DNA of 64,000 bases from Eledone cirrhosa (GCA_964016885.1 OZ024740.1:119164001-119228000), one strand, 5' to 3'. Counted from the first letter of the stretch, positions 5,298 through 60,160 are shown. Translations and numbers: made by a program. Notes: a model not told the origin generated them from the letters alone.

Positions 5298-5355
5298 CTG
5301 TCTGAAGAGCTCAGGCTATCATAACTGATAGTTCTCAGTGAAATATGTATAACAG
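5298..5355 (+). ncRNA. Minimal type-I hammerhead ribozyme
   Basis: Stem I CTGT/ACAG; core CTGAAGA (5302-5308); stem II including GCTATCA-TAAC-TGATAGT; GAAA (5340-5343); short stem III T-ATGT-A; cleavage triplet AUA (site after 5351). Confidence 0.75.
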
Positions 5356-6488
5356 AGATTTAAATAAACCTGAATCAACTGAATATGGCCTCTGGTTTTT
5401 TATTGATATATAATGTTCTGAGTTGCACCATTATACAGGTTGTTGAGCACTTCTTCTTATCTGCTTCACAACCGACAGACCATAATGTGGTCTGCGCATC
5501 TCTGTTCATTTAACCCATACTCTAATTAAATGTGCCAATTAAGTTGACCACTTTGCTGAAGCCATAGACAGGTGATGGCTTCATATGCTCTGCCGAAATC
5601 ACACGGCACATAGCAACGGACTTCATTTTGAATACCAAAGCTGACCAGAGGACCCAATTCATCTGTATAGACTAGTAGAACACTCAGGATAAGAATTTCA
5701 TCTGACCATAGACAACACTTTATGGAATTTAACAAGCGGCTGTCCAGGGAATAAGAACACCTATGAGGAGACCCTCTCCCCTTTACCTAATGCACACAAG
5801 CTGGCACACCAGCCAAAATCTCTCTACGGACTCTTTGAACTCTATCCCAACCTCTATCTTAACGTTATTCTCCATATGTTGCTCTATCTATCTTCCTAAC
5901 ACTCATTTTATAGTCGGACACATTTGTACTTGTTTGGATAACCTTGTATGGATCCTGTATACTTCCTTGCCTTTATTATATTATATGTACTTATCATTTT
6001 CTTTGTCTACACCATATCTGTTTATCTTGTATATTGCTGCATACAATGTTTTTCTCTCTCTTCTACAGTATGACTGTGCACAAACCTTAATTAACTCAAT
6101 CTTTAAGTTTAATTTATCTCTTATTCATCCTCACAGGTCTCACTTTGCTATTTCCTTTAAGTTACTTTAAGTCAGCCTACACACAATTTACTGTATTTTA
6201 ATAATCTCTAATCTTTCTTCACATGCCATACTTTGATAATCCCTTTAAATTACCTTAGGTTGGCCTACACTACTTAATTGGTAAAGGAACAGCCTAATAG
6301 CTCTGTACCAGTCAGACATGTTGGTCCAGAGACCTTGATCAGTTTTACAGATATTTGACGCAACCTGCGGGGAACAATCCTACTGCCCTTCCCCTCCCGG
6401 ACATTCCCATTATTTATCATAAGATAAATAATGGGAATGTTCTGAGTTGCACCATTTATACAGGTTATTGAGTGCTTCTTCTTATCTG
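5298..6488 (+). mobile_element. Non-autonomous Penelope-like / retrozyme-like element with terminal direct repeats
   Basis: ~52-bp direct repeat at 5412-5463 and 6436-6488; HHR in the left repeat region; 18-bp perfect hairpin at 6401-6440; no recognisable ORF; microsatellites on both flanks. Confidence 0.6.
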
Positions 6489-6843
6489 ATACAGAAAGTG
6501 AAGATACAGAAAGTAAATATACATACATAAATACATACATACACACACATTCACTCACATATGCACAAACACAATATATATGCCTTTGAAATTATAAATA
6601 ATGAAAAGCATCACTCAATATATCAAATAGAGTTTATTTATTTACATAAACTAGGTTTAAATTCATGGCTTAATCTATTCTTAATTTTGTATGTCTGTTT
6701 TCCAAGGTGTGAAAAACAGAAACATGAATCTCAGTGAGATGATGGAAAGGAACTCCAACTTCAAATGAATTTAAGTATATTTCAAATGGAAAGATATTAA
6801 AATGTTGACTGATGTAAAATCTACATGTAACATCACAGTTAAT

Positions 6844-6844
<1 letters not shown>

Positions 6845-6882
<38 letters not shown>

Positions 6883-6920
6883 GTTCAACGTCTATCTCCC
6901 ACACTAGCATGGGTTATATG
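6845..6920 (-). mobile_element. Very short RTE 3' end with (ATC)n tail
   Basis: (ATC)n followed by CGTTCAACGTC...CTAGCATGGGTT, the terminal motif of the RTE copies at 61366 and 60161. Confidence 0.7.
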
Positions 6921-7589
6921 TTTTCAATATTTCATAACTGGAATGAAAATTGTTGAATGAGACAAATTATATTCTTGCTTTCAATCGATGTGATAATCAA
7001 GCATAGCGATTGAGTTAGGGATGATGGGTGGCACTGTAAATGTCCTTGTGCTCAAATAAAAAAGCATGCAAAATTTCCTTTGACTTATGCTTGTCAATTA
7101 AGTTGTTGGTGTCAAAAATGAGAGCCCTTGCTATCCCACTGTCAGGAAATGATCTAGTTGATAAATTACATCATAGTAATCTTGTGGCAGATAATATGTG
7201 CTTTACTGGACTAAAGATGATATAGAGGTAGGGGAGTCTTTGTAAAGCATTAGTCAGTGTTGCTGTTCTTTAACCATGCAATATAATTTGGACTTTACTA
7301 TCTTATTAATAATTGCATACACAATTTTGTTGAAACTAATATACTTATCAAGCATACAGTATATCTTATTCAAAACTAGATTTCTTGAAATCTGTAGTTT
7401 CTGAAAAATGTATAAAATATGAAGGCTTTTTTGTCACAGGTGAAGGGCAAAAATAAAATCTAATTCTATACTGCAAGCTAAAAGTATATAAGAATGACGT
7501 AACTCCTACAAATTGTTGAGTACTGATCAAGCAAATCTAAGGTGAATGGCATTCTAGCTAGAACTAGCCCATCTTTTATTCAGATGTAT

Positions 7590-7944
7590 CCTGGTCATGT
7601 TGGTGATATGAGAAAAAGTGCCCAGTCAATACTGTAAGGTGTTCAGGTTGGTGACATAAAAAATGTGCAGGTCTACCCTGTAAGGTGGTGGTGTTGGTGA
7701 CATAACAAAAAGCACCCAATCCACACTGTAAGGTGGTCATTTTGGTGCCACGATAAAAAGCACCCAGTCCACATTGTAACATTTTGGGTGTTAGGAAGGG
7801 CATCCAGCCATAGAAAGCAAGCCAAAATACAGATCCATATGAGCATGATGTGGTCTTCGGACATGACTTGTTTCATAATGCAACAACCTGTCTAATCCAT
7901 GCAAGCATGGAGAATGGATGTTAAATGATGATGGTGATGATGAT
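7590..7944 (+). mobile_element. RTE LINE 3' UTR with tandem modules and (GAT)n tail
   Basis: Four AAAAAGCACCC..CACTGTAAGGTGG-like modules, GTTAGGAAGGGCATCCAGCC, ATCCATGCAAGCATGG...(GAT)n. Confidence 0.8.
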
Positions 7945-8266
7945 TCTATCTCTGAGTAGATAAAATAGTAGTGTGTGATTTCACGGAGATTTGGTAGCAT
8001 TTAGAGCCAATTCAGCAACCACAATGAAACATGTCTCATTAGTTTAATTATATCTACATATCTGCAGCTGATATATTCACATGGAAAGTGTTAATTACAT
8101 TGGCAAAATATAAATAGCACAGTTCATGAACCTGTTACCTTTCACATAGATGTTTGACATTTTATCTCTTTTCCACGCTCTGACTCAAGAGAATTATGTT
8201 AAACGAAAAGGAATAAAGATAAGTCTTAAAAAATGAAATTCATGCCCAGAGAAACATTATATTTGA

Positions 8267-8321
<55 letters not shown>

Positions 8322-9101
8322 GATACAAAAGTGAATTGTATATAGGAAATAAATAACCATTATCCTTATTGCAATAAAATATGGGAATAGTTCTAAATTT
8401 CTTAAATATTTTCTATTAAATGTGTTCATGACATGCCTGCTTTATGAAGCCCTATCAATTTCAACAGGTAAAACTTTATTTGTGTAGCAAAACAAAACTA
8501 TTACTAAAAAAGAAGAAATACAAAAGGAAATGTAGTATAATAAATAGAGAAGTTAACAGAATATAAAAAAATAGATTTGGTTATTAAACTTAATATACCT
8601 TAACTAAATGGTGAGGAATACTCCCATAGATGACAGATATGCAATTCTAATAGTTCAATTGCATGCTGTGCTAGATGAAGGAGGGAAATGTGCACACACA
8701 CACACATATATATATTTAGAAAAGGAAAAGAGATGATATTACATATTCAATATCAGTTTATTTCATTATATCACCCCATTATGTACATTTCGTAGGCAGC
8801 AAAAGATTCTTATCCAACATTTATCTAATTCTTTGTTGTAAGACTGGAGTTTAAATGTAAACAAAAATAAGCCTGTTTTGTTTTTGATATGCCTGCCATT
8901 GAAGAGTTGTTTACATTCCAATATCCAGCTACCATATGTTGTACTGACTTTATTACTGGTAAGCTGGGGGACAGGGGAGTGGGAGCTATAAAGGTGGCAC
9001 AAGTAGATGGTGGAAGTAAGTTAGTGCACTAAACAGAGTTGGGCTATTCAATCTAAGGTTATTTGTTCAAATCGCTAAAGGGTTATAAAACAGTTGATTA
9101 C

Positions 9102-10152
9102 TCTATGTATACTATAAAGCTGACGGCCGTATGTAAGTATCAAACTTTCCGCCAAACGTCTGGACCAAACGGCACCAAATTTGCACCATCTTTAAAATTT
9201 TCAAATGTCAATAATTCCGGTTATACAACATTCCTAACGTCTTCACGAACCAAAGTATTATCTCCCTGTTTTATTTCGGTTGCAACGTTTTTCGAAATAT
9301 TTACTTCTGCGTTCACAGATTGATTTTTTTAGTTTCAGAGATCCTGATAAGGGTGAAAGCAGCAATTCTTTGCTTAAACTTTAATCTGTTATTTTAATAT
9401 ATATATATAATTATATATTTGTGTCCAGATATTTTTGCATACACAAAAACAAAATATAAACAAACGTATTTATTTCACGAAAGCACAGACGGCTTATTGT
9501 CATTGTTACTGCCGAGATGCCACCCAAAAAGTCCCAGCCTGGCCGCAAGATCAGATTTTCCAGAAGAAAAAAATGTTATAACAAACGTATTTATTTCACG
9601 AAAGCACAGACAGCTTATCATCATTGTTACTGACGATATGCCACCCAAAAAGTCCTAGCCTGGCTGTAAGATCAGATTTTCCAGAAGAAAAAATGTTACT
9701 AGAGCAACAGAGAGACTAAGCTTCGCGATTACCACCAACAAAGTTCAGGGTCAAACCCTAAAAGTGGCTGGCGTTCATCTGGGAAAACCATGGCCAATTG
9801 TATGTAGGATGCTCTAGGTTGAGCTTGCCAAACAATCTCTTCATCTTTGCTCCCGAGGGCCGAACAAAAAATATTGTATACTCTGAGGGTCTAATAATGT
9901 AATTTATGTATTTTCTGTTACGTGGAATTTCCATTATGGTTGTACAAATTATTTTAAAGTTTGTAAAAAAATGTGTTCTCGGTTCAACCTTTATACACGA
10001 ATACTCACACACACACACATATATATATACACAAACACACACACACACACATACACTGTAAACAAGACAATGCATTCAATACAGACGTTTTCTCTTTTGC
10101 TGGTCTTCTCTTATCATTTGTTAACCTTGGCGAAGCTGGGTACCTCAGCTAG
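9102..10152 (+). mobile_element. Non-autonomous Helitron (internal deletion derivative)
   Basis: 5' TCTATGTATA; 3' hairpin ACCTTGGC-GAA-GCTGGGT then CTAG|T (10149-10152). Retains an MPPKKS..RKIR start and the PIF1-helicase C-terminus FAITTNKVQGQTLKVAGVHL..HGQLYVGCSR..FIFAPEGRTKNIVYSE (9722-9895). Confidence 0.9.
9459..9699 (+). repeat. 2x ~121-bp tandem duplication inside the Helitron
   Basis: AACAAACGTATTTATTTCACGAAAGCACAGAC...CCAGAAGAAAAAATGTTA repeated at 9459 and 9580. Confidence 0.9.
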
Positions 10153-11169
10153 TTTAATATATTGATCAGTTAGCTTCCAGTGTGTGGCAATGTTTGTCCT
10201 ACCCCTATCACTATCATGCTAGTATCAGTAAGTCTATGGAGCATTGACATCTATCTAAGCTGTTGTACAGAAAAAAGAGGGAATGTGCTACAGCTAATAT
10301 GTGGGAATGTTAGCAAATGCATATGTGCAATTTAGATCTAAATATAGTGGGAAGGTGTTGAAGTAACTATGGGTGCATGTGTATAGTCATGTAGCAGTAG
10401 TATGTGCAGACATATGGGAACTAGATTACACACCAGCACATACATGCTGATAGACACACAATCCTTACGTGTTTGTGCACACATTTATGTCTACGTGTTT
10501 CAACATAATTGATGATAGATTGATAGAGGACAGAAAAGGAAGAAAAGGAAAGAAAGAAAAAAGAAGGAAAAGAAAAAGAAATCATATCACAAGTAAAGAT
10601 GAAGACAAAAAGTTTAGTGGAAGCTAGTGGAACTAACTAAAGGAAATAGAGGGCCCACTGTCCAATAGGAGGGATAAACCACTGTAACTATGCATCAATG
10701 TTATATGGGCTTGCAAAATGATGTAATATCTTAGTCATTTACACGATGAAGGAGAGAAGTCAAAAGTTATCGGCTATAATTTATAAACTAACTAAAGAGT
10801 TTTAGGAAGGTTTTAGATATTTTGTGCCTGAATGTGTTAAAAAATAAAAGCATTTATTTATTATGTGGGGCCTCCACCCTCTAGATTTTTCACAGTGTCT
10901 GTGGTGCATAAATCACAGCCACCTATAAAAGATCCTCCCTGATATGGGTGTGCAGATTTAAGAGTAGCCTATGTCAAGGAGTGATGTATTCCATTCTGCT
11001 CATGTCTCCATATAATTTTTGATAGTGTTGCACTGTCCCTCTTGTCTGTTTCGTTAAATAAGTGGTGGTATTTGTACCATTCACTGTCTAACCTATATAT
11101 TTATTATTTTCATTGCTACTAACAAACTTACACTCATATATTAGGTTGTTACAGAGGCATACTCTAAAC

Positions 11170-14655: not shown

Positions 14656-15984
14656 CAACAATCCTTAGTGATAGTGAGGCCTATCATTTGGAGTGAACAC
14701 ATGTGCTATAATTGCATGCTGTTCATGTTTATGGGTGATGAGGTGTGGTGAGGTTTTAATTCCATACCCATATTATCAACAAAAATAGAAAATAACAATA
14801 AAAAGGAATCAGATACTTCCTCAATCACTCATCTGGACTGGAATCATACTGACATAAAGTTTTTAAGAATTTCAGCAATCATATTGATCACACCATTTAT
14901 TTTAAACTATGTAAAAACAGACATGGGTACACACACATGCATTGAATATAAGCACAGTGCTCAAATAACATATTCATGCAGAGCTGCAATTATTATTTTC
15001 TAAGAAATTGTTACTGACTGAGTTAGCACTTTCTTGGGCAATGTTGGGTAATCCTGTTATTTAGTGATGTACATATACGCATTTATATATACATACATAT
15101 GTGCGTGTGCGTGTGTGTGTGTCTGTGTGTGTGAATGCTGTAAATGTCTATGCATTAGAATACAGAAGATTTGGTGCCTTAACGAAATTGAAATAATGAA
15201 AATATGGCTTAGTTCGGGGAATAATGTGACAGATAGGTCAGTATCTAGAAGCTTCTTCATCGATTTTTGTAATAAAATGGGAAAAACGAATTCTTGAGTT
15301 TATATAATTGGTTTACAAACATAAAGAATTTTTCCATAAAAGAAAAAAGAAATATACAGCTAAAAAAGTAGTCTGTAGCTATTTTGGTGTAATGCAATAA
15401 TAAATAATAGGAAAATTTTGAAGGGATCACTGACTGCATGTTGTTCAATTTCTACCAGTGTCTTTTGTTATTTTCTGAAGGTTTATCCTTTTATTTCTAT
15501 CTATGATCATGTTGTGTGTAAGCATAATTGTGTACAAGCAAATATATATGTATAAGCTGCCCTCACCCATGCCCATGGTGTAGATCACCCTTACTCCATG
15601 CCACAGCCCTTCTACCAACCGACTGGCATCCCCCCTCCCCTACCACCCACCTACTGTGCCCCTCTAGAAGACCATCTTCTGTCTTTTCCACCGCCTACAG
15701 TCAGATCCCTCCACCTCACACATCTTTCTCCTCCTACACCTTCCTTCATTCAAGTGCACTTGTAATCTTTGAAACCTCCTCATCCACAGCTCCCTTCCTA
15801 ACCGTAACTCATTTCCTGGATCCCACCCCAGTTGCTGACCCCATTGTCATACATGCAGCTTTATCTCCAACCCCACCACCCTTTTCCATCTCAATGACTG
15901 GCCCATCCAGGTTAGAGACTCCTTAGTATCTTTGGGCTAGCACTTTGTGCCGAACCCACTAACTCACAGTGAAGAGAACAGCAA

Positions 15985-21165: not shown

Positions 21166-22339
21166 TATCTGACGAGATTGATAAAATAAGTCCTGAGGTG
21201 AAAGTGATTGACTAAATCACTCCAGCATGACCACAGACTAATAAGAAAAATAATATATGCGCACAGAAATACATACATGATTATATCATTATCGTCATCA
21301 TTGGTTGCGCTCATAGTTTTTGGCATTAATATATAGTGGTTGGATGCCCTTCCTAAAACTTAGACACCGGTCACTTTTTTGTCTTTACTTAGGCATATAT
21401 TCGTTTTTATATATCTATACTATATATGAGCATTTATAATGTTTTACCATCTTTATAATTATATCTAGTAGTATTGTTTTGGGGTGTTTTAGTTAGTCTG
21501 CAATGGATATTCATTTATTTAATAAAATGTATATTTGTAGATGAAATTCAACATTATATTACTAAATATTATATCTAGTAATAAACTTTATGTTTATAAT
21601 TTCACCCCAGTATATCATACAAAATATTGTTTTTGTGCATTATTATTTTGTAGTTGTAGTTATGTGCTGTTTAAATCAATACAAGTAAAACAATGGAGAA
21701 AGAAACAGCGGAGTGAAAATGATGATAAAGTTAAAATACACTATATTTTTGTGATTAGTTTACTTATATTATACATATAGTTTATTTGAAATAGTTATTA
21801 TTTCCTATACTTTCTAAGAATATGATGCCTAATTGTCAGTTGAATTAGAACTTATTTGTATAATAAGTGAAATTAGAATTCACCTTCTGGTGCCTGAAAG
21901 CTTGTGTACCTAGCTAGTCTATATGATTAGTATTTTGTGTTACAGAATTTATAATTCATCATAATTTTTCTTAACATTACTTGCAGCATTTCAACAATTC
22001 ACTTCTTTTTGAGAATGTCATTTCTTTTCTAATATTTCTTCTTACATATTTCTTAAATATATTATGTCCATGTTCTTTCATTTTATTTCTATTTAGTTGG
22101 GAAAACTTGGAGTTATTATTTGTTCATTTCCATTAATAATCTTAAAAATTTCAATTTAATCCTCCCTTCTTATTTTTTGTAAATTAGTTGCTGTAATTTG
22201 AGTAACAATTGTGTAGCTCTTTCAATTTCTCTTAAATGCAGAGACTGGGCTTGAACACCAACTTACAAATGTGGTCCAAAATATGTCTTGTATAAAATAA
22301 CAAATATTTCTGAGGTTAAATAATTAAAGGAACTTGTTG

Positions 22340-23080
22340 TAAGACGCCTTACGTCCCCCTGTCGGATAATGGACCAGGCCTAGTTGTTTCCCCCTCACGA
22401 TCTTATTCAACTCATCGCCGCCGTAGCCGTTACAAATCATGCTTACAAGTGAAACGACGACCAGAGTCACTAACGGCGGATAGTGCGCTCTGCGAAACAT
22501 CATCCAACCGCCACTTTTTTATTGAGGACCTGCTATCAGGTAGAGCCTTTCTGGTTGACACAGGTGCAGCTTGTTCAATATGGCCTGTGTGTTGTATGAA
22601 GGAGACTCCCCCTGAGTCACCTATTGAGTTGCAGGCAGTAAATTGTTCGCCGATTCGAACCTTCGGACAAATCTCGCTACCTTTGCAGTTTCGTAATCTG
22701 CGGCGTAAGTTTAAATGGATTTTTACTGTCGCTGCCTTGCCGTATCCGATTCTAGGCGCGGATTTTCTCCACCATTTTTCATTGACGGTGGACCTCCGTC
22801 GTAAACGCCTAATTGATGGCATCACTGGTTTAACTGTTGTTGGCAAGGCAGCAGGAGTTCCAACGGTTAGCCCGACCTTTTTTCTTGCTAACACCGGTGA
22901 TACTTACCATGCGTTATTGAACTCGTCCCGCAACTGACTCAGGGAAATTTCCGAGTTGATGAGCCAAGTTCTTCTCAAGAGCAACATACGCACCATTTGA
23001 ATCTTCTTTTCCGCAAAAATGGTAAATAGACAAGGAACCTTCCCTCACGTCTATGTCGATAAACAATCCAACTAGGATAC
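22340..23080 (+). mobile_element. Ty3/Gypsy LTR-retrotransposon fragment (aspartic protease, small RT remnant)
   Basis: ORF 22449-22937 has RAFLVDTGAACSIWP...LQAVNCSPIRTFG...PILGADFLHHF (retropepsin DTG and ILG-DF motifs); downstream SSSQEQHTHHLNLLF resembles post-YxDD RT sequence. No LTR pair seen. Confidence 0.88.
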
Positions 23081-31715: not shown

Positions 31716-32274
31716 AAAACCTTCAATTAACGGAGATTATAATTACAATCAAAAGATAAATGGTATCTCTAGGGATGTTTAAGATTGCAAAATCACAAAG
31801 GAAAAAATTAATAAGATTAACTAATCCAAAATTTGGGGAAATAAAATCATAGAAACCATGACAAATATGAAAGAATAAAGATATGGTTCTGAAACTGTAA
31901 AGACATGTCCAACCCATGCCAGCATGGAAAGAGGTGGTAAAATAACTATGAAGAAAAACAATGTGGTTATACTTCCATCCATTCGACCAACCATATGTTC
32001 ATATTTATCTACCATTATGAAAATAAGTCTGTTTATTCTGTTCAACAAAGTGGCTTCCTGTTTGGGAAAATATGGAGTAAAAGTCCAATGGATCAACTAC
32101 AATAATTAGTTAGACTCTACCATGGGACCATGACAACAGTTACTTTTCTCCTGTGCATTTATATATATTCAATTGAAGAAAGTTGGTTGATTAAAAATCT
32201 TTAACAGCTGTGAAGCACCCCAGCATTTTATTGCAATAAATAAGAGAGATCGTTTTATTCATACATCCTTATTT

Positions 32275-32348
32275 TATTCGTTATACATATTTCAAAGATT
32301 TAAGGTAGTTTTATAATAACTACCTTATGGGTTCCCTACAGACAAATA
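32275..32348 (-). ncRNA. Degenerate hammerhead ribozyme (core mutated)
   Basis: Minus strand TATTTGT-CTGTAGG-...TAAGGTAGTT/AACTACCTTA...-GAAA-TATGTA-TA-ACGAATA. Stems and the AUA site are present, but the core reads CUGUAGG. Confidence 0.55.
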
Positions 32349-32942
32349 TACACACGAGATGTAAAATTCCATAGACATGTTACTAGTTGGACGTATTATT
32401 CACTTCACCGACCAAAGCGCCCCCCCCCCACACACACATGTATATGCACATATATATATATGATTAAATGCTCCTTAGGTAATACTAAGACATGCACACA
32501 GTTTATGTGTTAGTTTTACTGTTTGCATCATTGAATTTTATATGTACAAATTGCTAATAAGTGCTGTTTATCCATGATAGTTGCACTATGATGTCTCATT
32601 AATAGAGAGGTGTAAACAGTTAAGAACACTCCATGTTAGTTGTATCTATCCAGTATAATGGTGGGGATCAAACGTAATGGAGTTATGTATAAAAAAAAGG
32701 TTACAACAGAAGTTACAAATTCATATTTACTATACATATTTTTTATACATGTTACTGTAGTGCCAGGATGGAGCTGTAATGCAATCACTACAGCAGCAAC
32801 TGGCACTTGTTGAGGTGTTTAACTTTGTCAATATTCTGATATGCCCAGTTCCTGGTTGGGTTGTTATTTCGCTGAGGCCCAGTTCCTCAGTGAAATAACA
32901 ACCCAACCAACATGTGTACTCGTCTCTACCACACTAATTCGG

Positions 32943-32997
32943 ACTGCCTGAAGAGGTCACAGCCAAAGATGGCTGTCACCGAAATATATATAGCAGT
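32943..32997 (+). ncRNA. Minimal type-I hammerhead ribozyme, intact core
   Basis: ACTGC-CTGAAGA-GGTCACAGCC(AAAGAT)GGCTGTCACC-GAAA-TATATA-TA-GCAGT: 5-bp stem I, 9/10-bp stem II, palindromic stem III, AUA site after 32992. Confidence 0.85.
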
Positions 32998-33166
32998 AAT
33001 AAATGAAGCCAAATTTTAAGCATTTGACTTATTTATTTTATTTTATCTATCTATATATATATATATATATATATATAATAAGGAGCAGCAACGATGTATC
33101 AATATAACATCATTATGTTTATTCACATATATATAGGTATATATGCATGTATATGAGTATATGTGA

Positions 33167-33274: not shown

Positions 33275-33414
33275 AGTTTTAATATAGATGAGATTCTACA
33301 GGACTAGAACTGTTTCATTTTTTAGAAGTCATCAGGAATCTCATCTTAGATTCCTGATGATTTCTAAAAAGTGAAATAGTTCTAGTCCTGTAGAATCTCA
33401 TCTATATTAAAACT
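33275..33414. repeat. 67-bp-arm inverted repeat with a hammerhead-like motif in each arm
   Basis: Arms 33275-33341 and 33348-33414. Each reads AGATTC-CTGATGA..GAAA-(C/T)AG..CTG-TA-GAATCT on its own strand. Confidence 0.85.
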
Positions 33415-33480
33415 GCTATACTCTGCTATGTATTGAGTACCTTACTTACTGTGGTTACCTCCGATTCAACCCGGAATAAC

Positions 33481-33515
<35 letters not shown>

Positions 33516-33680
33516 TATCTTGTGTATTTGTTTATATTTAAGTTGTTTTTATTTATTCATATACTACTACCAGCTTAATGATCTATATTGCCCCTTCCTA
33601 TTTTTACTATTGGTCGGTCAATCTTAACCTTGTTCTTAAAAGGTTATTATTCATACATGTTTTTATATTCTTCAATAAAC

Positions 33681-33820
33681 AAAACTCATTATTTCTGAAG
33701 ACGGCGGGTAGAGAAGACGTATGTATATTTTCTTACTTTGATAATTTGTAATATATTTTACATAGATCACTAATAGAATGAACATACGGAGAACCCCCCA
33801 GAAATGATTGTAAAATAATG
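33681..33820 (+). ncRNA. Hammerhead ribozyme with ~100-nt stem II insertion, 3' side duplicated by a SINE insertion
   Basis: CATTATTT-CTGAAGA-CGGCGGGT...ACCCCCCA-GAAA-TGATTG-TA-AAATAATG. The full 14-bp stem I AAAACTCATTATTT/AAATAATGAGTTTT is completed by 34049-34062 beyond the SINE. Confidence 0.65.
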
Positions 33821-34035
33821 GTTTCTTATATAGGCACAAGGTCAGTAATTTGGGGGGAGAGGAAAGTCGATTAAATCGACCCCAGTGCGTGACTGGTACT
33901 TTATTTTATCGACCCCATAAGGATGAAAGGCAAAGTTAACCGCGGCGGGATTTGAGCTCAGATCATAAAGAGCCGTAACTCTATGTTGCAGAGCATGGCG
34001 TCCGACCCTCTACCGATACTGCCAATCCACCGCCC
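33821..34035 (-). mobile_element. Full-length tRNA-derived SINE with ~20-bp TSD
   Basis: Head GGGCGGTGGATTGGCAGTATCGG, B-box-like motif and core on the minus strand; flanks (G/C)AAA(T/C)GA(T/A)TGTAAAATAATG at 33801 and 34037. Confidence 0.92.
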
Positions 34036-34114
34036 TCAAACGAATGTAAAATAATGAGTTTTACTATGAATTACCCGTATTTTGTTTAATTTCATTGTTT
34101 TCACTATTTGTATT

Positions 34115-34250
34115 ATATATATATATATACATATTAAAATAACAGATTAAAGTTTAAGCAAAGAATCGCTGCTTTCACCCTTAACGGGATCTTCTGAAAC
34201 ATAAAAAATCAATCTGTGAACGTAGAAGTAAATATTTCGAAAAACGTTAC
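34115..34250 (-). mobile_element. Fragment of the 9102-10152 Helitron family
   Basis: Reverse complement of ~9283-9410 (AACAGATTAAAGTTTAAGCAAAGAAT...GTAAATATTTCGAAAA). Confidence 0.85.
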
Positions 34251-34251
34251 A

Positions 34252-34305
<54 letters not shown>

Positions 34306-34617: not shown

Positions 34618-34699
34618 TGACTTTTACTGTTTGGTACTGTCTTGTCAATTGTAAATGGGATTTAAACATTTTTAACTGTCTCCAGGAATAAGTTACTGG

Positions 34700-35270
34700 T
34701 ACAGTATTTCGTTTTAAAAGAAGAACTCCAAGATAAGAAAATACTACTTGGACAGTACCCAACGATGTTAATAGATAAGAGAATAGATTGTGCCAAAGCA
34801 ATAGATATCCAAGAACTACAAAGAATAAAATACACACCCAATATCCTACATTTATCATAACACACAATCCCAGAAATACAAATACATACAACATATACAT
34901 GATTATCTACTAGAAATTCGACTATTCGGATGAGAACCTATAATGAAAACAGCACTCGAAATACACAAAATAATCAAAAGCAAAAGGCAGCCAAAATTTC
35001 TTCAAAAGCTAATCACGAGTGTCAAATTACCCACCACGAACCCAACAGCAACATTCAAAACAACTGCGGTCACCATAATTGCAGGACTTGGATCGACCTT
35101 CTGAAGAAAACATTGTATAAATTTAAATCAGGACAAATTTTAACATAAACAATAATTTCACATGTTCAGCAAAAATATTTATACATTCTAATAAGAGTAA
35201 AAGATGTAATGATGACTACATAGGACAAACAAAGCATATCCTGAGAAACATAATGACAATTTATCGACTA
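34700..35270 (+). mobile_element. Penelope-like element relic (RT thumb, Cys linker, GIY-YIG endonuclease)
   Basis: Frameshifted QYPTMLIDKRIDCAKAIDIQELQR..THNPRN..CGHHNCRTW..YKFKSGQ..NNFTCSAK..RCNDDYIGQTKHILRNIMTIYR. Confidence 0.8.
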
Positions 35271-36010
35271 GCACCACTTTGCATGTTTTTTCACAGCCTC
35301 ACAACCCCAGAGTGGAGCCTGGCTCCATGCCTTACCCTCCTTCTCTACTAGTATGCAGCTGGACAATGATAGCCTGCACATCAGGATTTCCCTGAGGCTT
35401 GGCCTCCGGATCTGTGAGTCACACAAATGGCACTGCAGATTCACTGTGGACTCTTTGGCCTCCACCCGCTTTCCTGTCGCTGTAGTGCTGGCAACCTTCC
35501 ATGCCATGCTGCCCTCAACGAGGCCATAAAACATGGCTTAGATGCTGCAGTCTTCCCCTCCCAGCTCGAGCCAGTAAGGCTAGACTGGGGGGAAGGCAAA
35601 AGGCCAGATGGTTTGACCATCTTCCCATTCTGTGGGTGTAAACCCCTCGTCTGGGATGCCACTTGCAGCGATTCATTCTCCAGTGGCAACCTGGTGCAGT
35701 CTGTGACTAACCCAGGCTCTGCTGCATTTCGGGCTGAGGAAGGTAAACTCTCCAAGTATCGGTAGCTCTTCGACAGATTTGCAGTCGAGCTCCTAGCAGT
35801 GGGTTTCTGGTGTCCTTGACCCTAGGCTACCTTGATAATTACCACCATAGATGCTGAGCTGGCTAGCCACAGGTGTGAGCCTCATGAGATGGAATGGCTC
35901 TTCCAGCACATCTCCCTTACCATCCTCCCAGAAAATGCCTTCTCCATTCTGTCTGCCAGGACCGTGGGGCAACCAGCACGTGGGACCACTTTTGCTCATA
36001 ATAGAGAGAG
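35270..36010 (+). mobile_element. CRE-clade non-LTR retrotransposon 3' fragment (zinc knuckle + RLE)
   Basis: ORF 35427-35765 GLHPLSC...HAALNEAIK...LEP..GKRPDGLTIFPF..PLVWDATC...AAFRAEEGKLSKY, the RPDG..WDxT..K signature of CRE-type endonucleases; GC-rich block. Confidence 0.8.
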
Positions 36011-36159
36011 GTGGGAGGGCGAGAGAGATGGAGGCAATGACAGTGTGATTTCGGCTCTTATGTATTCGAACCTGGTTTGCAGGGCTGTTTTCCCGTAAGG
36101 ATGTAGTGATTCATCTACTGTTATCAAGTGCGCTGCCTACCAGTCATTGCGGGACTTGA

Positions 36160-36465
36160 AGATACATCGTATACATTTAAATCAGGACATTTTTTACTGT
36201 AAAAAATAATTGCAAATATTCATCAAAATAATGTATGCATGCGAATAAGTGTAAAGGATATAACAAAGACTTCATAGGACGAACAACATTTATCCTCAGA
36301 AACAGAAATACTATTCATCGTTAACTGATAGATTCCACTGAGTGGGGATCTAGTCTTATGTGCAACAAATATGTCCTACAGATACAATACCCCAGACCAA
36401 ATATGAATATATAAAGAAAATATATTTATACACAAACAAAAATCATGACTGAATAAACTTTAACT
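36160..36465 (+). mobile_element. Second Penelope GIY-YIG segment and ORF end
   Basis: YTFKSGHFFTVKNNC..KCKGYNKDFIGRTTFILRNRNTIHR...KENIFIHKQKS*LN; a diverged direct repeat of 35110-35268. Confidence 0.72.
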
Positions 36466-37219: not shown

Positions 37220-37383
37220 TGGACCCCAGTCTCTATCATCTCATTTCTACAGCTGAGTAAACTGGAGCAATGTGAAATAAAGTGTCTTGCTCAAGGAAAC
37301 AACACATCACCCAGTCTGAGAATTGAACTCACAACCTTTCGATTGCAAGCCCAATGCTCTAACCACTAAGCTATGTGCCTCCA
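37220..37383 (-). mobile_element. tRNA-headed SINE fragment
   Basis: Minus strand GGAGGCACATAGCTTAGTGGTTAGAGC (A-box) ... GTGAGTTCAATTC (B-box) ... CCTTGAGCAAGACACTTTATTTCAC. Confidence 0.85.
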
Positions 37384-37430: not shown

Positions 37431-37570
37431 ATGTCCTGATGATTTCTTACAAATGAAACTGTTCTTTGTCTGTAGAAGTCATTTCTATAATAAAATAAAT
37501 ATGCCTATACTCTAATAATGTATTGAGTACCTTTTTTAATATTGGTCACCTCCCAACTTACATTGAGGTT
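37431..37570 (+). mobile_element. Second, decayed copy of the 33348-33480 hammerhead-tail module
   Basis: TCCTGATGATTTCT..GAAACTGTTCT..CTGTAGAA...CTATACTCT...ATGTATTGAGTACCTT...GGTCACCTCC aligns with 33352-33462. Confidence 0.7.
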
Positions 37571-50153: not shown

Positions 50154-50195
<42 letters not shown>

Positions 50196-50203
50196 TAAAG
50201 AGT

Positions 50204-50277
50204 CAGGACCCCGACAGTTGAGCTCCGGCCATTTCGACAGGTTGATTTAGCTGTAGAGCTCAGCCGTCGGGGTCCTG
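50204..50277. repeat. GC-rich 22-bp hairpin in a ~175-bp module flanked by (TA)n
   Basis: CAGGACCCCGACAGTTGAGCTC / GAGCTCAGCCGTCGGGGTCCTG. Confidence 0.85.
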
Positions 50278-50387
50278 TCCCTTTTCCTATTACCCACTCT
50301 ATTACCCTAAGTATTGAGAACTCTGGTGCATTGTGGTCCACCTGGTATCGTACCACACCTTCTTTGTATATATATATATATATATAA

Positions 50388-51560: not shown

Positions 51561-51696
51561 GAAGTTTGAGGGCCACAACAATTCAAATTGGATGAACAAG
51601 AAAATAAGATGAAACAAGATGTTATGTGTTACCTTAATTATTTATCCATCCTGATTTTTTGAGATAAAATCTTTTCTTCAGAATATAACAAGTGAG

Positions 51697-51735
51697 CAGT
51701 CCGGATTCAGTAGGGTGTTTACCGAATCCGGACTG
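51697..51735 (-). repeat. 16-bp hairpin upstream of a decayed CTGAAGA motif
   Basis: CAGTCCGGATTCAGTA / TACCGAATCCGGACTG; the single mismatch is G-U on the minus strand. Confidence 0.7.
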
Positions 51736-53740
51736 GTCAAGAATGTCAGTGTAAGGAGGAGATCTGGCATAGGTTGGATGGGGGAAAGGTAATTACAGAT
51801 GTAAGTGTAGTGAGGAGCACATTGTGGGAGTCCAGATATCTGGTCTTTCCATGATGGCATGGGTTGGACACACATAGTTACATACACACTGCAATCTTCT
51901 GTAGCTACTACAACACTTTAAGTTTTTTTAAATTATATGTAGTGCACTCTCAGATGTACCCACCTCTTCTTTTTCCATGACCCAGTCTATGTTGCATCTA
52001 CAAACCCTACTGTAACTTCTGTTGTTATTGTTCAATCAATAACTGCTTCACAGAATGTACTGGGTACATTTTATCAGAGACGTTTTCTTGTCTTTGATGT
52101 AACTGGAGAGTTCACTCTACCTTACATTTTTTATTTTCAATCGCTAATACTTTCTCTCAAGAATTTCTCCAATACACATCATTTTTCCTGCAGTCATTAG
52201 CCTGTTGCATCCAAGAAAATATCAGCTACATAGATCACCAGTCTCAAAATACCTGCATATGCCATGAATATAGCCACATCTTCCAGACTTAAACATTAAC
52301 AATAATTATTCAATTGCAGAATTCATGATGAAACTCAACTACACGGACACTGGGACTAAATAAAGATAAAATAGTCTAAATAATAATATATCTACTAGAC
52401 ACATAAAGAAACCACACAACAATAAGGCAGCCTACAATTTTTTGTTGCTTGAATACCTTGAATTTATTTCAGTACATGAGAAGTATATCAGTTTGGAAAG
52501 ATTTGTATTTGTAATAGGATCATACTTTCTTTGTAGGTTATCAACATATTGCTTTCTTGATTGTATTCTGTTCATTTCATCAGAACTGACGTTAAAACTA
52601 GCCTGAAGTAGAGTTTATGAACTCTATAGATTGAGTGCTATGTAATACTTTTTCTGAGATGTAACCTTTCCAGGATCTACGTTGTCCTTTCAAAAAGCTC
52701 ATAATTTTGTAACAAAATACAACTATATAAAATAATATATCAAAATACAATCATTTGTTCACAGGAAAAAGAAAATTCCCAAAACATGAAGCAATCGGAT
52801 AAGTAAAAGGTTTTAGGTATAGGAAAATAGATTATTTTTCATTGACTTTCATTATTTTCTGATAACTAAATATGGAAGTCTTGCTATGGAAAATGTTTCT
52901 GTTAGTTGTCATGATTGATTGACATTTTGTGTTTTCTCTTCTCTAAATCAATGTGTCCACTTTGGAATGTGCAGATTATTGGTTAATCTCATAGAATTCA
53001 TCTTCATTTACATCTTTCTTGCATCAAGTATATATTGTATCCTACCATGAACAAAATTTGAATTCCGTATATTCTCCAGAAAAAAGTTTAAAAATGGAAA
53101 ATACAGAAATAAATACTGGAAAATAAAAAAAAGTGTTCAGAATAAAACAATAGGTAAATATGATTTAATACAAAATTGTATTCATCATCCATATTATCTT
53201 TCATCTTCGTTACCACTTATAATCCATAATTCTATCAGGAGTTACTAACAACACTATGTACTTCATAACCACTGCTATTATCATTAACAGCACCACCATG
53301 TATCAGAGACATCTCTTTCAATAGTAACAGTACCACTACTAACATTACAAAAAGTGAAGCAAACAAAGGAATTGAAATTCTTTTCTCTAAACAAAGTATA
53401 TCAAGACAAAATACTCATTCTATACAACACACAATATTCAAATATATGGGTTGTATTTTATTTATTCATTTCTTTCTTCTTATCAACAACATTACGCTTG
53501 CATAAGCTATTATTATGTTATATTCTAAATTGCTATAATTCCATCTCCCATGTTTGACTCTTGTTTACCTTTGTCTTATCTCCAACTGGTGAGTAACCAT
53601 CTCTTATGGTTCATTTAGAAATATTTTCAAAATATTCTTTTATAATTTCATTTTTCAAAATAATTTTGAATATATATTATTCTTTTTAGGAATCAAAACT
53701 TACTGCACATTAACATTAATTCTCTTTCAGATATTCATAA

Positions 53741-53925: not shown

Positions 53926-54337
53926 AATGACAGAAAATCATAATCATCATCATCATTATAGTATTCTTTATTTAGGCATTCACAACACTGATTTCATTGA
54001 AGATGAATTTTATTAAAGATTTTGGGTATAATTAGGAACATTTTTCTATTTCAAATATAGGAAAGTTTTCCTTGCTTCTCCTCGTACAAATGCTCTACTA
54101 CAGAAAAAATTAAAGTAATACATAATGAAAGACACAAAGAACTTGAAGCTGCTTCAGTCTTATTCACAACCACAAGCTCTAATTAAACCTTTTCACTATC
54201 ATATTTCTAATGAAAGACCTTCCCTCAGCTTTTCAACTCACTTAAATAAAGATGTTTAAGGGATATAGTATAAAACTAACTTTCTCTTTATTATGCTGGT
54301 ATTTGGAACATAGTCTTTATTATTATTATTATAAAGA

Positions 54338-54980
54338 CTAGATGACGTACCCAGCTTCCCCCGGGTAACGCTGTAGTTCACTGTTTGATAAAGTCGAATT
54401 GCTTTTATTATCAGTATTCATTTCGAGCAATTGTCAAAAAATGACACAATAATAAATATAAAAGGTCCCTATTTACTCCCTTCACAACTCTGTGTATGTT
54501 AGACTGACAGACATGCACACAGACAGATAAACTGCGTGGCGATTGTGCAACGCCGCACGGACACACACATACACGCTTGGAAACGCGCACACGCACGCAA
54601 ACTTACACACGCACACGTGCACTTACGCACACACTCACACATGTTGATAGTTTTTACTTTCTGTGGAACGCTGCACGCACGCACACACACATAAAGATAC
54701 GCGCACGTACATACACACGCGCACATGTTAATAGTGATTGCTTTCCTTCCCCTCTTATTTCCACACACATCACACACACACACATATACATAGTGTATCC
54801 AACACAGCGTTCAATTGCCTCTCTGTTTCTTACTCTACCCTCTCACTCCCTCATTGGCATTATGCATATTAATTTAAGTTTGGCGTCGTTGAGGTGGGCG
54901 GAGTCGTTTGAAACCTATGAACCAATGATAATCGAGAATTATGACACACGGAATACTGACATTGTTGAAATTAATATATA
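54338..54980 (-). mobile_element. Non-autonomous Helitron, short copy
   Basis: Plus strand A|CTAG..GTACCCAGCTTCCCCGGGTA (3' end and hairpin); body collinear with 55533-56101; 5' end lacks the terminal TC. Confidence 0.9.
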
Positions 54981-56103: not shown

Positions 56104-56142
56104 TCTCTACACAAAATTATGATCGAAGGTTTTTATATATTA

Positions 56143-56178
<36 letters not shown>

Positions 56179-56744
56179 CACTTTAGATTAAAGAGGCTTG
56201 TATCATGGTTTCACATTGTAGTGTACCAAAAGTGTTAATCCTAAACAAGCTTCTTAGCAAGGCTAATACATATACATTTACAGATAACTGTAAATTAGAA
56301 ACATACATAGTTACTCTACACTGTTGTAAACTTTGAAAATACTGTATACGCATTGTGTTAGCTTTCAATACTAAGTTTATATGCTTCTATTGGATGCATG
56401 AAGTGCTTCCACAATGCTACACCTTGTATTCTATTCTACTAACTGAGTAAGAACGAATCCTCTAAAAAGCTATATTTCTTTAAACTATAGAATAAGATAC
56501 ATTGACAAACACTAGTACAGTATGAAAAGGTTAGAGCCAATCAATGATAAAGTCTTTCTTGAGCCTTGAGGTGCAACAGACTGGAGCCTATCCCCATTTT
56601 CATTCAACCTCATCTAGAGTAATTTCTTTCTTCCTTGTTTTCATTTTCATTTTCTGAATAAGGAAATGGATCAAAAGTTCTGATTTTGCTATACAGGATA
56701 AGATTACTGATATTGAGAAACATATTGTTAGATAACATACATGA

Positions 56745-56895
56745 GAGCTTGACTGGACTTGCTTGGAGACTCAACTGGATCAATTGGAGATGGTTGCTTC
56801 TGACAGTACGTGCTTGAAAGTGTGTTTCAGGACTCGGTCCATATGACCCTCCCAGGAATAAGTGGGAAAAGATGATGATGAAAAAGAAGAAGAAG
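56745..56895 (+). mobile_element. 3' end of the old RTE family
   Basis: GTTGCTTCTGACAG...ATGACCCTCCCAGGAATAAGTG + (GAT/GAA) tail, matching 13520-13632. Confidence 0.75.
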
Positions 56896-57129
56896 CATAT
56901 TAATTTCTTTCTTCCAAATGCTTGATGTAACTATTAAATAAAATATTTCAAATTTATACTGAAATATTTGGAAAACTATTCGAGACAGATATTCAATCAT
57001 CCAACCAGGTCAAGAAGTAAACTATTATTTATCTGTTTATGTAATTCATCAACGTCTGTAGAGAGCTAGTTAATCATGACAGACTAGGGGAAGTTTCTAG
57101 TACTTCTACAGTTGAGAAAAAAAAAAAAA

Positions 57130-57375
57130 TTACACAGTCCACACTGTAAAGTGGTCATGTAGGAGACATGGTAAAAAGGCTCCCTGTCCACACTGTAAAT
57201 GTGGTTGGTGTTAGGAAGGGCATCAAGCCATAGAAAACCTGCCAGAGATAGTTCTGTACAAGCAAGACACGGTCACCCAACTAATCTACTCTCAAGTGGG
57301 ACAAACCCTTCCAATCCATGCTAGCGTGGAAGATGAACATTAAACACTGATGTTGATGATGATGATGATGATGAT
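57130..57375 (+). mobile_element. RTE 3' UTR
   Basis: CCACACTGTAAA modules, GTTAGGAAGGGCATC, ATCCATGCTAGCGTGG, (GAT)n. Confidence 0.85.
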
Positions 57376-57491
57376 AATTGTTTTTTTAAATAAATAAAAA
57401 TGCTAAAAATTATAATTATGTAACAGTTTCATCAATTAGGAATAGAAATACAGTTTAAAGCTTTTTCAAAAATCAAAGCGAGCTAAATAAT

Positions 57492-57980
57492 ATACCTGAT
57501 TAAATAATTGTTTCTACTCTTGGCACAAGGCCAGCTATTATCCCAGTGCATTACTGGTACTTTATTTTATCGACCCCATAAGGATGAAAGGCAAAGTTAA
57601 CCTCGGTGGGATTTGACCTCAGACAGTAAAGAAATGTAACTCTATGGTGCAACCCATGGTGTCTGACCCTCTACCAATACTGCCAATCCACCGCCATCAT
57701 ACCTGATTAAATAATTGTTTCTATTTTTGGCACAAGGCCAGCAATTATCTCAGTGCATTACTAGTACTTGATTAAATAATTGTTTCTACTTTAGGTACAA
57801 GGCCAGCAAATAGCCAGTTCATTACTGGTACTTTATTTTATCGACCCCGTAAGGATGAAAGGCAAAGTCAACTTCGGCAGGATTTTAACTCAGACGTAAA
57901 GGGACGTAACTATGCTGGAAAGCATGGCGTCCGACCCTCTACCGATACTGCCAATCCACCGCCCTACTTGATTAAATAAT
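57492..57980 (-). mobile_element. Three tandem SINE copies (full, 3' fragment, full) separated by one repeated target sequence
   Basis: Copies at 57507-57695, 57714-57764 and 57780-57964; TAC(C/T)TGATTAAATAAT occurs four times (57493, 57700, 57765, 57965). Confidence 0.92.
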
Positions 57981-59940
57981 GAAATTTGTTTTACATCAAA
58001 TATACGAATCTTAAATTTTAACTTCTAGATATTAGATATTAAACATTTAATGCATCATATTGCTTGTAATTAAACTAATGGCTCATGAATAATGAAATCA
58101 GATCTTTCTCTTTCTTCATTTACGTCATCATTATCTATCTATGGTATTACTTTGGGCATCATTCTAATCATATTTATATTTATCTCCTGATTTAGCTAAA
58201 GTGCAGCTTAATTGTTTATTATTGTAAAATATTTGAGCTAAGAAGGCAATGAGATGGAATATATATCATTAAGGCATTTTGAACTACAACACTTCTTACT
58301 TCATTGGTTACTTTTTTATAATTGTAAAAATAAATCTACAGCAATGTCATGTATTTTGTTTGATGTGAAATTAATCCTCATGAGGGCTTTTCAGCAACAC
58401 ATGATGTTATTTTAAAATTCATCAGTATCTGCTTACTTCTCCTTCCTTAGATGCCGAGAAAATGTAGTTGAAAATTATTTGCTTATTCAGATATGTTCTT
58501 AGACCCAACTTTGTTTCATAGTGGTACAAGAGTGATATAATGTTTCTATTGTTACTCTAGTAACAACTGACTGGCCATTAACCTTCTACCATTATGTTAA
58601 TCATTTTTATCTTGGTATCTACTTGTTTACATATGAATGAGTAATCAATATAGCCTCAGCATTGTGGGAAGTTGTCCCCAAATGTCTACAATTATATATT
58701 TATGTTGCCATATGGGTACTTTTCCTATAATTATTCTTTCTCTTTCCCTGAAGTTAATAAAGCCTGTTTTTTTTATGATGATGATGTTGACGATTGTGAT
58801 GATTGTGGTGATGATGAAGAGAATAGAGGAGGAGGAGGAAGAGGAGGAGAGGGGACGGGCAGAGGGATGGTGGTATGGTAGACGAGGGGGAGTGGAGGTG
58901 GTGGAGGAGGAGTACGATAATTATGATGATGATCAACATTTTCCAACATTAATTAAAATTACTACCCAACAAGAAACATTAACAACTATTCATGCAACAG
59001 CCATGACACTATAAACATATTCAAAATCATCATCAAGATCATTGTCAATACAAGATTTTATTGTTAGTTTTTTACAATGGACTGATGTAATAAGAAGTGA
59101 AAAGTGAAAAGAAATTTTGAAAGTATACAAAAAATAATAAATTCAATTCTTTTAAAATGCTTAGATGTGTGAACATGAAAGAACATAATAAAAAAAATTG
59201 TATTACAACAACAATACCTAAAGACATAATTCTTAGTTTATAGTACGTTATATTTGTTTTATTGAATCAGTTAAAGAACAATTGACTTTATGATGAAATA
59301 AAAATAAAAGAAATACTAAAAATGTAATAAATGGGACCAATCTTGCAAAAAGTAATTTATAAAACAATTTCTTTACTTATCAAATTTGAGAACTTAGTCC
59401 ATTAAAATTGTTTGAAATCAATATCTTTTGTTAGTAGTACTAATATTGCTGTAGCAGAAGCTAAGTGATTAAGTAGATCAGACACCTGACAGCCACCCCA
59501 CTGATTGTAAGTTCAAGATTTGGTGCATCTACTTTCCAAACTCAAGAAAACATCGAAATAAAAGTATTTAAACCAGAGGCAATAGAAAGGGGTTCCAGCT
59601 AGATCTTGTCAACAAAATCTCCATACGGTTTAAATACATGAGTCTCAGCTATCCGAATGGCTAAATGTCAGCAGAAGGGCACCCAGGAGACATGATCTGG
59701 CAGTGATGTAGATAGAATATGTGCCGCCCAGAGCAGCCCTTCAGTTTGCCGCTCCCGGCCACAACATAAAACACATATTGCTTTTAACACACACATATAT
59801 ATATATATAAGCAAAGAGATATTTAATTTGTTGGTTATTCAACAACTTTATTTATAACAGATTCAAACCACTCTACAAGTTTTCCGGAGTATAATATCAA
59901 TGATATTAATAAATGGAAACTATAGTTTTAAAACCATATT

Positions 59941-60000
59941 TATTTTATAATATATATTTCAAAGGTACCAAATCTTGGTATGCTCTCATCAGATAAAATA
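59941..60000 (-). ncRNA. Minimal hammerhead ribozyme (core intact, AUU site)
   Basis: Minus strand TATTTTAT-CTGATGA-GAGCATACCAA(GAT)TTGGTACCTTT-GAAA-TATATA-TT-ATAAAATA. Confidence 0.7.
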
Positions 60001-60035
60001 CAAACTTTGTTTTATAAACTGAACCTGAAATTTTG

Positions 60036-60096
60036 TATTTTATCTGATGAGAGTGTACCAAAATGTTGGTACCTTTGAAATATATAGAATAAAATA
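60036..60096 (+). ncRNA. Minimal hammerhead ribozyme (cleavage triplet mutated to AGA)
   Basis: TATTTTAT-CTGATGA-GAGTGTACCAA(AATG)TTGGTACCTTT-GAAA-TATATA-GA-ATAAAATA. Confidence 0.6.
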
Positions 60097-60160
60097 AATA
60101 TGGTTTTATAAATATAGTTTCCATTTATTAATATCATTGTTATACATATATATATATGTA

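Follow-up and report, generated by a model that had tools for sequence, protein, structure and literature searches.

A stretch of 64,000 nucleotides (nt) from the genome of Eledone cirrhosa (GCA_964016885.1, OZ024740.1:119164001-119228000), referred to here as the window, contains dispersed modules made of a long hairpin, a hammerhead ribozyme and a tail. A first-pass annotation had described these as several independent families of non-autonomous mini-retroelements, a candidate retrozyme system mobilised by a Penelope-like element (PLE). Searches of the own genome (3.0 Gb) assigned eight of the nine named hammerhead sites to six repeat families, A to F, and a hairpin at 50204 to a seventh, G. 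The modules are very probably the 5′-truncated, often 5′-inverted pseudo-long-terminal-repeat (pLTR) ends of several protein-coding, Hydra-type PLEs inserted in (TA)n, accompanied by one likely non-autonomous family, C. The window is ~35% GC with abundant TA microsatellites. Its principal features are listed below by position in the window, where a short end stops at an inner 3′ end and a tailed end continues beyond it.

5291..5523, + strand: pLTR of family C, with hammerhead core at 5302, predicted cut at 5351/5352, the inner 3′ end and a ~113-nt tail carrying a bulged hairpin whose 5′ side is mutated in this copy
5521..6418, + strand: body of the non-coding 1.8-kb unit of family C, head-to-tail directly after the tail
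6401..6496, + strand: locus-specific fold-back (6401-6439) and a tail-only piece of family C (6436-6496)
32167..32411, - strand: pLTR of family E, hammerhead core decayed in this copy and intact in the family
32807..33046, + strand: family A insertion, with an inverted arm (32807-32877) that produces the hairpin noted at 32853 and a forward arm (32879-33046) with an intact hammerhead (core 32948, predicted cut 32992/32993), a short end and (TA)n
33275..33483, + strand: head-to-head pair of family B, with a short-ended arm (33275-33341, -) and a tailed arm (33348-33483, +), tail hairpin near 33419-33439
33551..34116, + strand: 3′ end of family F, with a long-stem-II hammerhead (core 33695) and a short end, interrupted by an unrelated insertion at ~33825-34037
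34121..34260, - strand: hammerhead-like end with a CAGAAGA core (U4 to A) at 34196-, with eight relatives in fetched loci
34666..36465, + strand: decayed fragment assigned to a Neptune/Nematis-type PLE, with reverse transcriptase (RT) thumb, Cx4CxxC linker and a GIY-YIG domain with internal CxxC
37431..37560, + strand: relative of family B at 75% identity that has the tail hairpin and a decayed hammerhead stem I
50191..50362, + strand: head-to-head pair of family G, with a short arm (50191-50246, -) and a tailed arm (50256-50362, +), both cut within stem II of a U3-A8 hammerhead
51575..51745, - strand: end of a further family, H, with a variant, decayed hammerhead core at 51681- and a fold-back at 51697-51737
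59804..60143, + strand: head-to-head pair of family D, with a tailed arm (59804-60018, -) carrying an intact hammerhead (core 59992) and a short arm (60028-60143, +) with core at 60044 and the cut-site U changed to G

The hammerhead motifs are real, and those that fail in the window are decayed copies of hammerhead-bearing repeats. A strict type-I descriptor detected three sites (5302+, 32948+ and 59992-) compared to a mean of 0.03 in 100 block-wise dinucleotide shuffles, with 60044+ as an additional site once one mismatch was tolerated. A second descriptor permitting a long or bulged stem II returned four sites (5302+, 32948+, 33354+ and 59992-) and none in any of 60 shuffles, and when variant cores were permitted the count rose to six (adding 1222- and 34196-) against a shuffle mean of 0.17 and a maximum of 1. 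Four of the nine hammerhead-like motifs named in the first-pass annotation therefore stand by descriptor, and the other five fail in the window copy. For 32275-, 33290-, 33681+ and 60036+ the family majority sequences pass; 37431+ is the 75%-identical relative of family B. All seven majority sequences of families A to G pass the descriptor, as do 41/50 distinct ribozyme-spanning copies of family A, 33/44 of B, 24/79 of C, 54/77 of D, 10/22 of E, 8/20 of F and 3/10 of G. The minimal stem III sequences TATATA, TATGTA and TGATTG had been read correctly; TGATTG is a CpG-decayed CGATCG in family F, where it closes a stem II of ~100 nt, and the family G hammerhead combines a U3-A8 core with a long stem II. 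Self-cleavage of these copies is putative. In minimum-energy folding, only one of five hammerhead copies formed stems I and II unaided.

Across the fetched loci, 285 distinct hammerhead matches formed 46 clusters, in several of which stem II is very long, and some clusters lacking the tail hairpin described below may belong to other PLE clades. Genome-wide, a minimal-core sequence pattern gave 239,495 matches against 45,860 for its reversed control, a count of the pattern only, neither folded nor de-duplicated, which points to a very large hammerhead load. An Rfam scan of the window returned no hammerhead family, only microsatellite-driven miRNA-type matches and one tRNA-like match; the latter, at 37312-37375 (-), scored above the Rfam gathering score and is probably the head of a tRNA-derived short interspersed element. 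At 1222- lies another type-I hammerhead, accepted by the relaxed descriptor and built on a U3-A8 core, with five relatives in fetched loci, two 3′ ends and a near-match to the tail hairpin. At 4929- a CUGACGA...GAAA-TATATA sequence failed the descriptor and had no relative among the fetched loci.

When family copies were aligned with repeats masked, their 5′ ends formed a ladder reaching into coding sequence, and six of the seven traced families (A, B, D, E, F and G) extend upstream into RT/GIY-YIG coding sequence. In family A, locus L031 holds an inverted pLTR, an RT with YRDD, a CNCRNPGSC linker, a GIY-YIG domain, a long untranslated region (UTR) and the hammerhead, with ~3.3 kb between its hammerheads. 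This GIY-YIG domain matched Pfam PF01541 at E 3.5e-4, under the curated cut-off, and Pfam assigned names to little of the element open reading frames (ORFs). In family B, two loci (L373 and L375) have the order endonuclease, UTR with a long TA/TG tract and hammerhead, with ~3-4.6 kb separating endonuclease from hammerhead, and in tandem copies the tail was followed in all three opened loci by an intact ORF of 713 amino acids (aa) with the motifs RWRA, DKT, YRDD, CxCx5C, YIG and CxxC. Dozens of family B copies are 97-99% identical and many share one 758-codon open frame. Family D is collinear with RT and endonuclease in four of four long loci, family F in two of the three long loci fetched (L278 and L279), and family E with a Hydra-type endonuclease in L203. 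For family G, locus L264 contains an inverted G end and a forward RT-endonuclease copy whose UTR is 74% identical to G upstream sequence.

The tract in the family B 3′ UTR (L271, L273, L373 and L375) is a degenerate TA/TG microsatellite of kilobase size, so that this young family spreads its own kind of target. In contigs of three runs of unrecorded kind, the family B pLTR was covered much deeper than the ORF start, although contig depth does not measure copy number.

RT and C-terminal GIY-YIG lie in one ORF in family B, and the same order is found in A, D, F and G. The upstream motifs are RWKA (read from L024 DNA) and DKT in family A, RWRA and DKT in B, and DKT in D; linker and C-terminal motifs are CNCRNPGSC...CKLC...CRH in A, CNCLNKEAC...CDLC...CMH in B and CNCRDDSNC...CNLC in D, and inspection of A, B and D revealed no CxxC within the GIY-YIG core. 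The ORFs agree by eye with the Hydra alignment in the supplement of PMC8557442 (Craig et al. 2021), and one element protein had Argonauta as its best animal-named match. Because these motifs equal those given for the Hydra clade in the portion of PMC8557442 covered here, families A, B, D, E, F and G are assigned by motif to Hydra-clade PLEs. Assignment of family A to the Naiads was dropped, since Naiads carry their endonuclease at the N terminus and are without canonical hammerheads. Mobilisation by a PLE RT/GIY-YIG protein, as first proposed, is borne out. The first-pass annotation had named as a refutation that its families would prove to be only the pLTRs of autonomous Penelope elements, and the continuation of six of seven families into coding sequence comes close to this; the notion of several independent non-autonomous families survives in family C alone. 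Several points weigh against this coding reading: the numbered loci are top-scoring own-genome matches and no random sample; the link for family E is a single locus; in L264 a satellite interrupts the forward copy before its hammerhead; family H, the 37431 relative and the 34196- end have no traced ORF; and the clade assignment rests on motifs and by-eye comparison with named references.

The PLE relic at 34700-36465 had been suggested as the mobiliser. This fragment (34666-36465) has a Cx4CxxC linker and a CxxC inside the GIY-YIG core, and its better-kept relatives (~70% DNA identity) read CGRSNCGTC and CKGC, motifs by which it is assigned to a Neptune/Nematis-type PLE of a different clade from families A to G. 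In 14 other copies the downstream sequence reaches none of the seven A to G hammerhead ends, and the relic was rejected as their parent. The relic is itself interrupted at ~35270-36150 by another element with a KRPDG...LVWD frame, which had no Pfam match and which we take to be typical of non-LTR elements with a restriction-like endonuclease.

Family C differs from the coding families in that its tail runs directly into a non-coding body, giving a 1.8-kb unit in 5 of 20 loci including the window. The longest stop-free stretch of this unit is 119 aa, it produced no tblastn match with PLE queries and no match to a profile of 60 Hydra-type proteins, and all 30 mid-region loci map onto it. No coding partner was present in 105 loci, some of them fetched twice; four Hydra matches lay near family C loci, and the three that were opened proved to be one other family and two separate fragments. 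Its copies are mostly 79-90% identical to the majority sequence, and the family is older than B. Family C is a multi-copy, pLTR-bounded unit without RT or endonuclease and the one candidate non-autonomous Hydra-type relative; among the seven traced families the non-autonomous reading fits C alone (5291-6496) and fails for A, B, D, E, F and G.

In each of the seven families the 3′ ends are bimodal, falling at two discrete positions about 68-135 nt from one another. A TA run follows 277/314 short ends and 319/400 tailed ends (596/714 in total), in agreement with the (TA)n abutment noted earlier. Stacks of insertions are common in fetched loci; in L435:670-4300, at least six PLE insertions from at least four families share one TA tract. 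Among 213 head-to-head pairs, 181 were classifiable and 32 had one arm unclassified. The classified pairs comprise 174 short+tail, 6 tail+tail and 1 short+short, a count that also takes in tail-only arms; earlier counts, as loci accumulated, were 136/4/0 and then 145/3/1. Tail-less queries gave short+tail pairing in 12/12 pairs of family A and 16/17 of family D. The two arms of one pair agreed at 435/477 (91%) subfamily-diagnostic comparisons, compared to 60.5% between loci, with little excess for family A alone (16/24 vs 59%). Abutting junctions overlapped by at least 3 bases in 44/72 cases versus 7% at random, overlaps that alignment extension inflates. Within pairs the short arm reached further 5′ in 31 cases, the tailed arm in 22 and neither in 19, and solo arms were short-ended in 131 cases and tailed in 148. 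The pairing together with the allele sharing suggests that one RNA was copied twice. Counting against this, beyond the inflated overlaps, are that tail-containing queries cannot return short+short pairs, that 79 further short+tail pairs have unassigned bases between their arms, and that gene conversion between arms or fold-back of one complementary DNA (cDNA) would also explain the allele agreement.

The first-pass annotation had proposed the long hairpins upstream of the hammerheads (6401, 32853, 50204 and 51697) as cis-signals. All four exist in the window, but they are 5′ inversion junctions, by-products of insertion, and not conserved RNA elements, because the junctions are absent or nearly so from other loci (0/29 for 32853, 0/49 for 6401, 0/88 for 50204 and 1/14 for 51697); the conserved-element candidate was rejected as the junctions are nearly private to each insertion. 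The family A stem at 32853 repeats upstream sequence of the same element in reverse complement, with a breakpoint that varies from copy to copy. Fold-backs predominate in family G, occurring in 23 of 30 loci picked by pattern, because its truncation points gather in stem II, where short palindromes follow one another. Two early ideas on family G were abandoned: that it lacks a hammerhead and that it starts at a ribozyme cut site. A CUGANGA pattern yielded only seven unrelated joins, and long copies carry the U3-A8 form, in which the truncation hot spot is upstream of the cut site. Both an optional tail and an inverted 5′ copy joined at a palindrome have been described for PLEs (PMC8557442, PMC3846280).

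The TTGAG(T/C)AC-like motif noted in several tails does mark a shared feature. It is present at 5443, 6468, 33433 and 37523 and mutated at 50314, and it forms the 3′ side of a bulged hairpin, RCTC-stem-loop-stem′-NN-GAGY, with a loop of a few to ~70 nt and a 2-nt bulge before GAGY, found in all seven families. In all seven majority sequences the hairpin begins a few bases past the short end. It occurs within 200 nt downstream of 86/285 distinct hammerhead matches, most of these matches coming from the families that defined the descriptor, compared to 22/1425 shuffles and 150/3000 random windows. In 39 held-out clusters, the hairpin lay downstream in 9 (7 of them before the TA run) and upstream in 3; held-out clusters that possess both ends have the motif immediately behind the short one. 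Across 13 clusters the outer pair reads A-U in 10 and G-C in 3 and the first inner pair C-G in 8 and U-A in 5, and on this comparison the predicted hairpin covaries between families. The same hairpin is complete by eye in published consensus tails of Hydra-2_Amil, Hydra-1_Ajap and Hydra-2_Ajap, and partial in Hydra-1_Crog, while Hydra-1_Amil is apparently without a tail (PMC8557442, in the portion covered). In tandem copies of the elements studied here, the tail doubles as a leader just before the ORF. The hairpin is likely a start mark for the copying enzyme, and its position would suit a docking site for the RT. Several observations weigh on the other side. The descriptor was set after these families had been seen and requires the paired positions, so that only a change of pair type between families is informative. 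In 31 of the 39 held-out clusters no downstream hairpin was matched, many being short-ended arms and several, with long 3′ regions, apparently other kinds, and in two of the nine matching clusters it lies beyond the TA run. The Hydra-1_Obim consensus tail in PMC8557442 has no clear hairpin by eye, and energy folding recovered the outer stem in three of three tails with the 2-nt bulge kept in one.

We lean towards a mechanism with two starts on one RNA, the simplest account of these observations taken together. The element protein, probably a dimer, would dock on the bulged hairpin where the tail begins and cut both strands of a TA repeat. Reverse transcription would be primed from both target ends on the same RNA, with an inner start immediately 5′ of the hairpin and a second start where the tail finishes. 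The two cDNAs would usually stall early, often within hammerhead stem II, and would then either be joined together at short palindromic matches, which produces the upstream hairpin, or leave a solo arm when one of them joins the target; the hammerhead would be copied through uncut. A serious rival, quite possible though we hold it the less probable account, is that a single cDNA begun at the tail end snaps back at a palindrome and serves as its own template (or that an antisense template primes itself), with the endonuclease resolving the intermediate at the inner site; the tail hairpin would then be a signal for the endonuclease or for resolution and not an RT dock. Fold-back also predicts arm allele agreement and palindromic junctions. 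Moreover, self-priming was proposed in PMC3846280 and endonuclease-mediated tail formation in PMC8557442, and the Drosophila virilis endonuclease needs the tail, as noted in PMC11167929, each in the portion covered. Against it, solo short-ended arms are about as frequent as solo tailed arms, either arm of a pair may extend further 5′, and RT starts have been mapped to both ends in vitro, in another clade (PMC11167929, in the portion covered).

Two further rival readings are less probable. It is very improbable that the modules are several self-amplifying, non-autonomous hairpin-hammerhead-tail mini-elements or retrozymes, perhaps spreading through circular RNA. Short forms do far exceed long ones, family G having 1,525 exact 22-mer matches with only 7/100 G copies among the matches listed reaching the hammerhead core by eye; some G junction positions recur, the 5′ ends of family B cluster at stem I in a query-biased sample, and family C has no ORF. 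However, the ladder of 5′ ends carries six of seven families into coding sequence, the window junctions are nearly private, the recurrent G junctions sit in a run of short palindromes, most G copies lack a catalytic core, and copies are solo or head-to-head with no short hammerhead tandem arrays in the window or fetched loci. The mini-element or retrozyme reading is therefore largely refuted for A, B, D, E, F and G. An unlikely, though less remote, account is that the shared tail motif neither folds as RNA nor takes part in priming, being ancestral Hydra sequence or else a pLTR motif that works at the DNA level or as a promoter. The CTC/GAG core is invariant and so yields no covariation, the tail is also a leader just before the ORF in tandem copies, and whole-tail folding z-scores were strong in two of seven families only, all of which such inheritance would accommodate; outer and inner pair types nevertheless change jointly between families, the loop varies from a few to ~70 nt while its spacing from the inner end is constant, and the arrangement recurs in coral and sea-cucumber Hydra consensus tails. 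Extending the two-start mechanism, we tentatively suggest, as a conjecture somewhat short of probable, that in Hydra PLEs from corals and sea cucumbers to this genome a previously undescribed bulged RNA hairpin docks the telomerase-related RT and fixes the inner start, and that a protein dimer copies one RNA twice onto the ends of a double-strand cut. If true, the tail, the mirror-image arms and the palindromic junction would be explained in one step, and non-coding RNAs such as family C could ride along.

Further sequences were noted in the window. A decayed Hydra-type endonuclease fragment was found at 10873-11082 (-), a weak match (E 4e-4) to the non-Hydra PLE ORF of L035 at 15608-15880 (+), and a 205-aa frame at 22320-22937 (+) that weakly matches an aspartyl protease (Pfam RVP, E 0.016) and is likely the remnant of a long-terminal-repeat retrotransposon. 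Inverted repeats at 62246-62471, 63665-64000 and 63786-63932 consist of 3′ ends resembling long interspersed elements with (ATC)n tails, centred on or flanking TA runs; as far as seen, they have no relation to hammerheads.

Published systems are compared here in the portions of each source that were covered. The supplement of PMC8557442 lists Hydra-1_Obim of Octopus bimaculoides, with (TA)n preference and a canonical hammerhead. Our families share with the Hydra clade described there the C-terminal GIY-YIG, RWK-like and DKT motifs, CxCx5C linker, CxxC/CxH, a hammerhead near the 3′ end and the (TA)n target, and with PLEs generally the 5′ truncation, inverted 5′ copy and optional tail. They differ in number (at least six families against one octopus family listed), in tail length (about 68-135 nt against the 30-40 bp quoted), in size, as family B with its kilobase TA/TG tract in the 3′ UTR exceeds the <3 kb given as a tendency, in the variant hammerheads (U3-A8 with long stem II in G, ~100-nt stem II in F) and in the tail hairpin, which the covered portion does not mention. 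Metazoan PLE hammerheads (Cervera and de la Pena 2014, PMC4209133) are likewise type-I with a short palindromic stem III and massive copy number, mostly single or on opposite strands 100-700 bp apart, and include the U3-A8 variant; families B and G have a stable stem III of 3-4 bp, and the hammerheads reported here are known from sequence.

Non-LTR retrozymes (Cervera and de la Pena 2020, PMC7229834; Li et al. 2026, bioRxiv 10.64898/2026.07.22.740005) are likewise short dispersed repeats that carry type-I hammerheads and are related to PLE pLTRs, but they consist of non-coding monomers of 150-450 bp arranged head-to-tail in arrays and are expressed as circles, whereas the copies here are solo or head-to-head and continue into coding elements. 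No arrays of 150-450 bp hammerhead monomers were seen in the window, genome-wide arrays not having been searched, and the nearest approach to a retrozyme is the 1.8-kb head-to-tail unit of family C. In vitro, the protein of the Poseidon element PAc of Anolis cut and extended both strands, and its two RT starts delimit the tail; it is predicted to dimerise and did not depend on cleavage by the hammerhead (Frangieh et al. 2024, PMC11167929). PAc resembles our families in two 3′ ends bounding a tail, an AT-rich target and a hammerhead that is not the 5′ limit of copies. It belongs to another clade and starts in an AC-rich stem-loop inside the ORF, whereas here the tail precedes the ORF start and carries the RCTC/GAGY hairpin; the covered portion gives no genomic count of the near-strict pairing of short and tailed arms.

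Neither the pairing count nor the tail hairpin was found in the openly searchable literature, a scope outside which lie subscription papers, Repbase notes and some figures and supplements, and their novelty is provisional. Both PMC8557442 and PMC3846280 treat the way in which PLEs gain an optional tail and an inverted 5′ copy as unsettled. This genome offers countable rules that bear on it, one short and one tailed arm per pair with shared alleles; the hairpin is a candidate RNA signal, covarying across phyla, that bears on PLE mechanism, and the many intact family B ORFs at 97-99% identity are a ready reagent for an in vitro test. The class itself is already known, hammerhead-bearing PLE ends including an octopus Hydra family having been published, and our observations fit the published PLE anatomy, to which the covarying tail hairpin and the short+tail pairing rule are the provisionally new additions.

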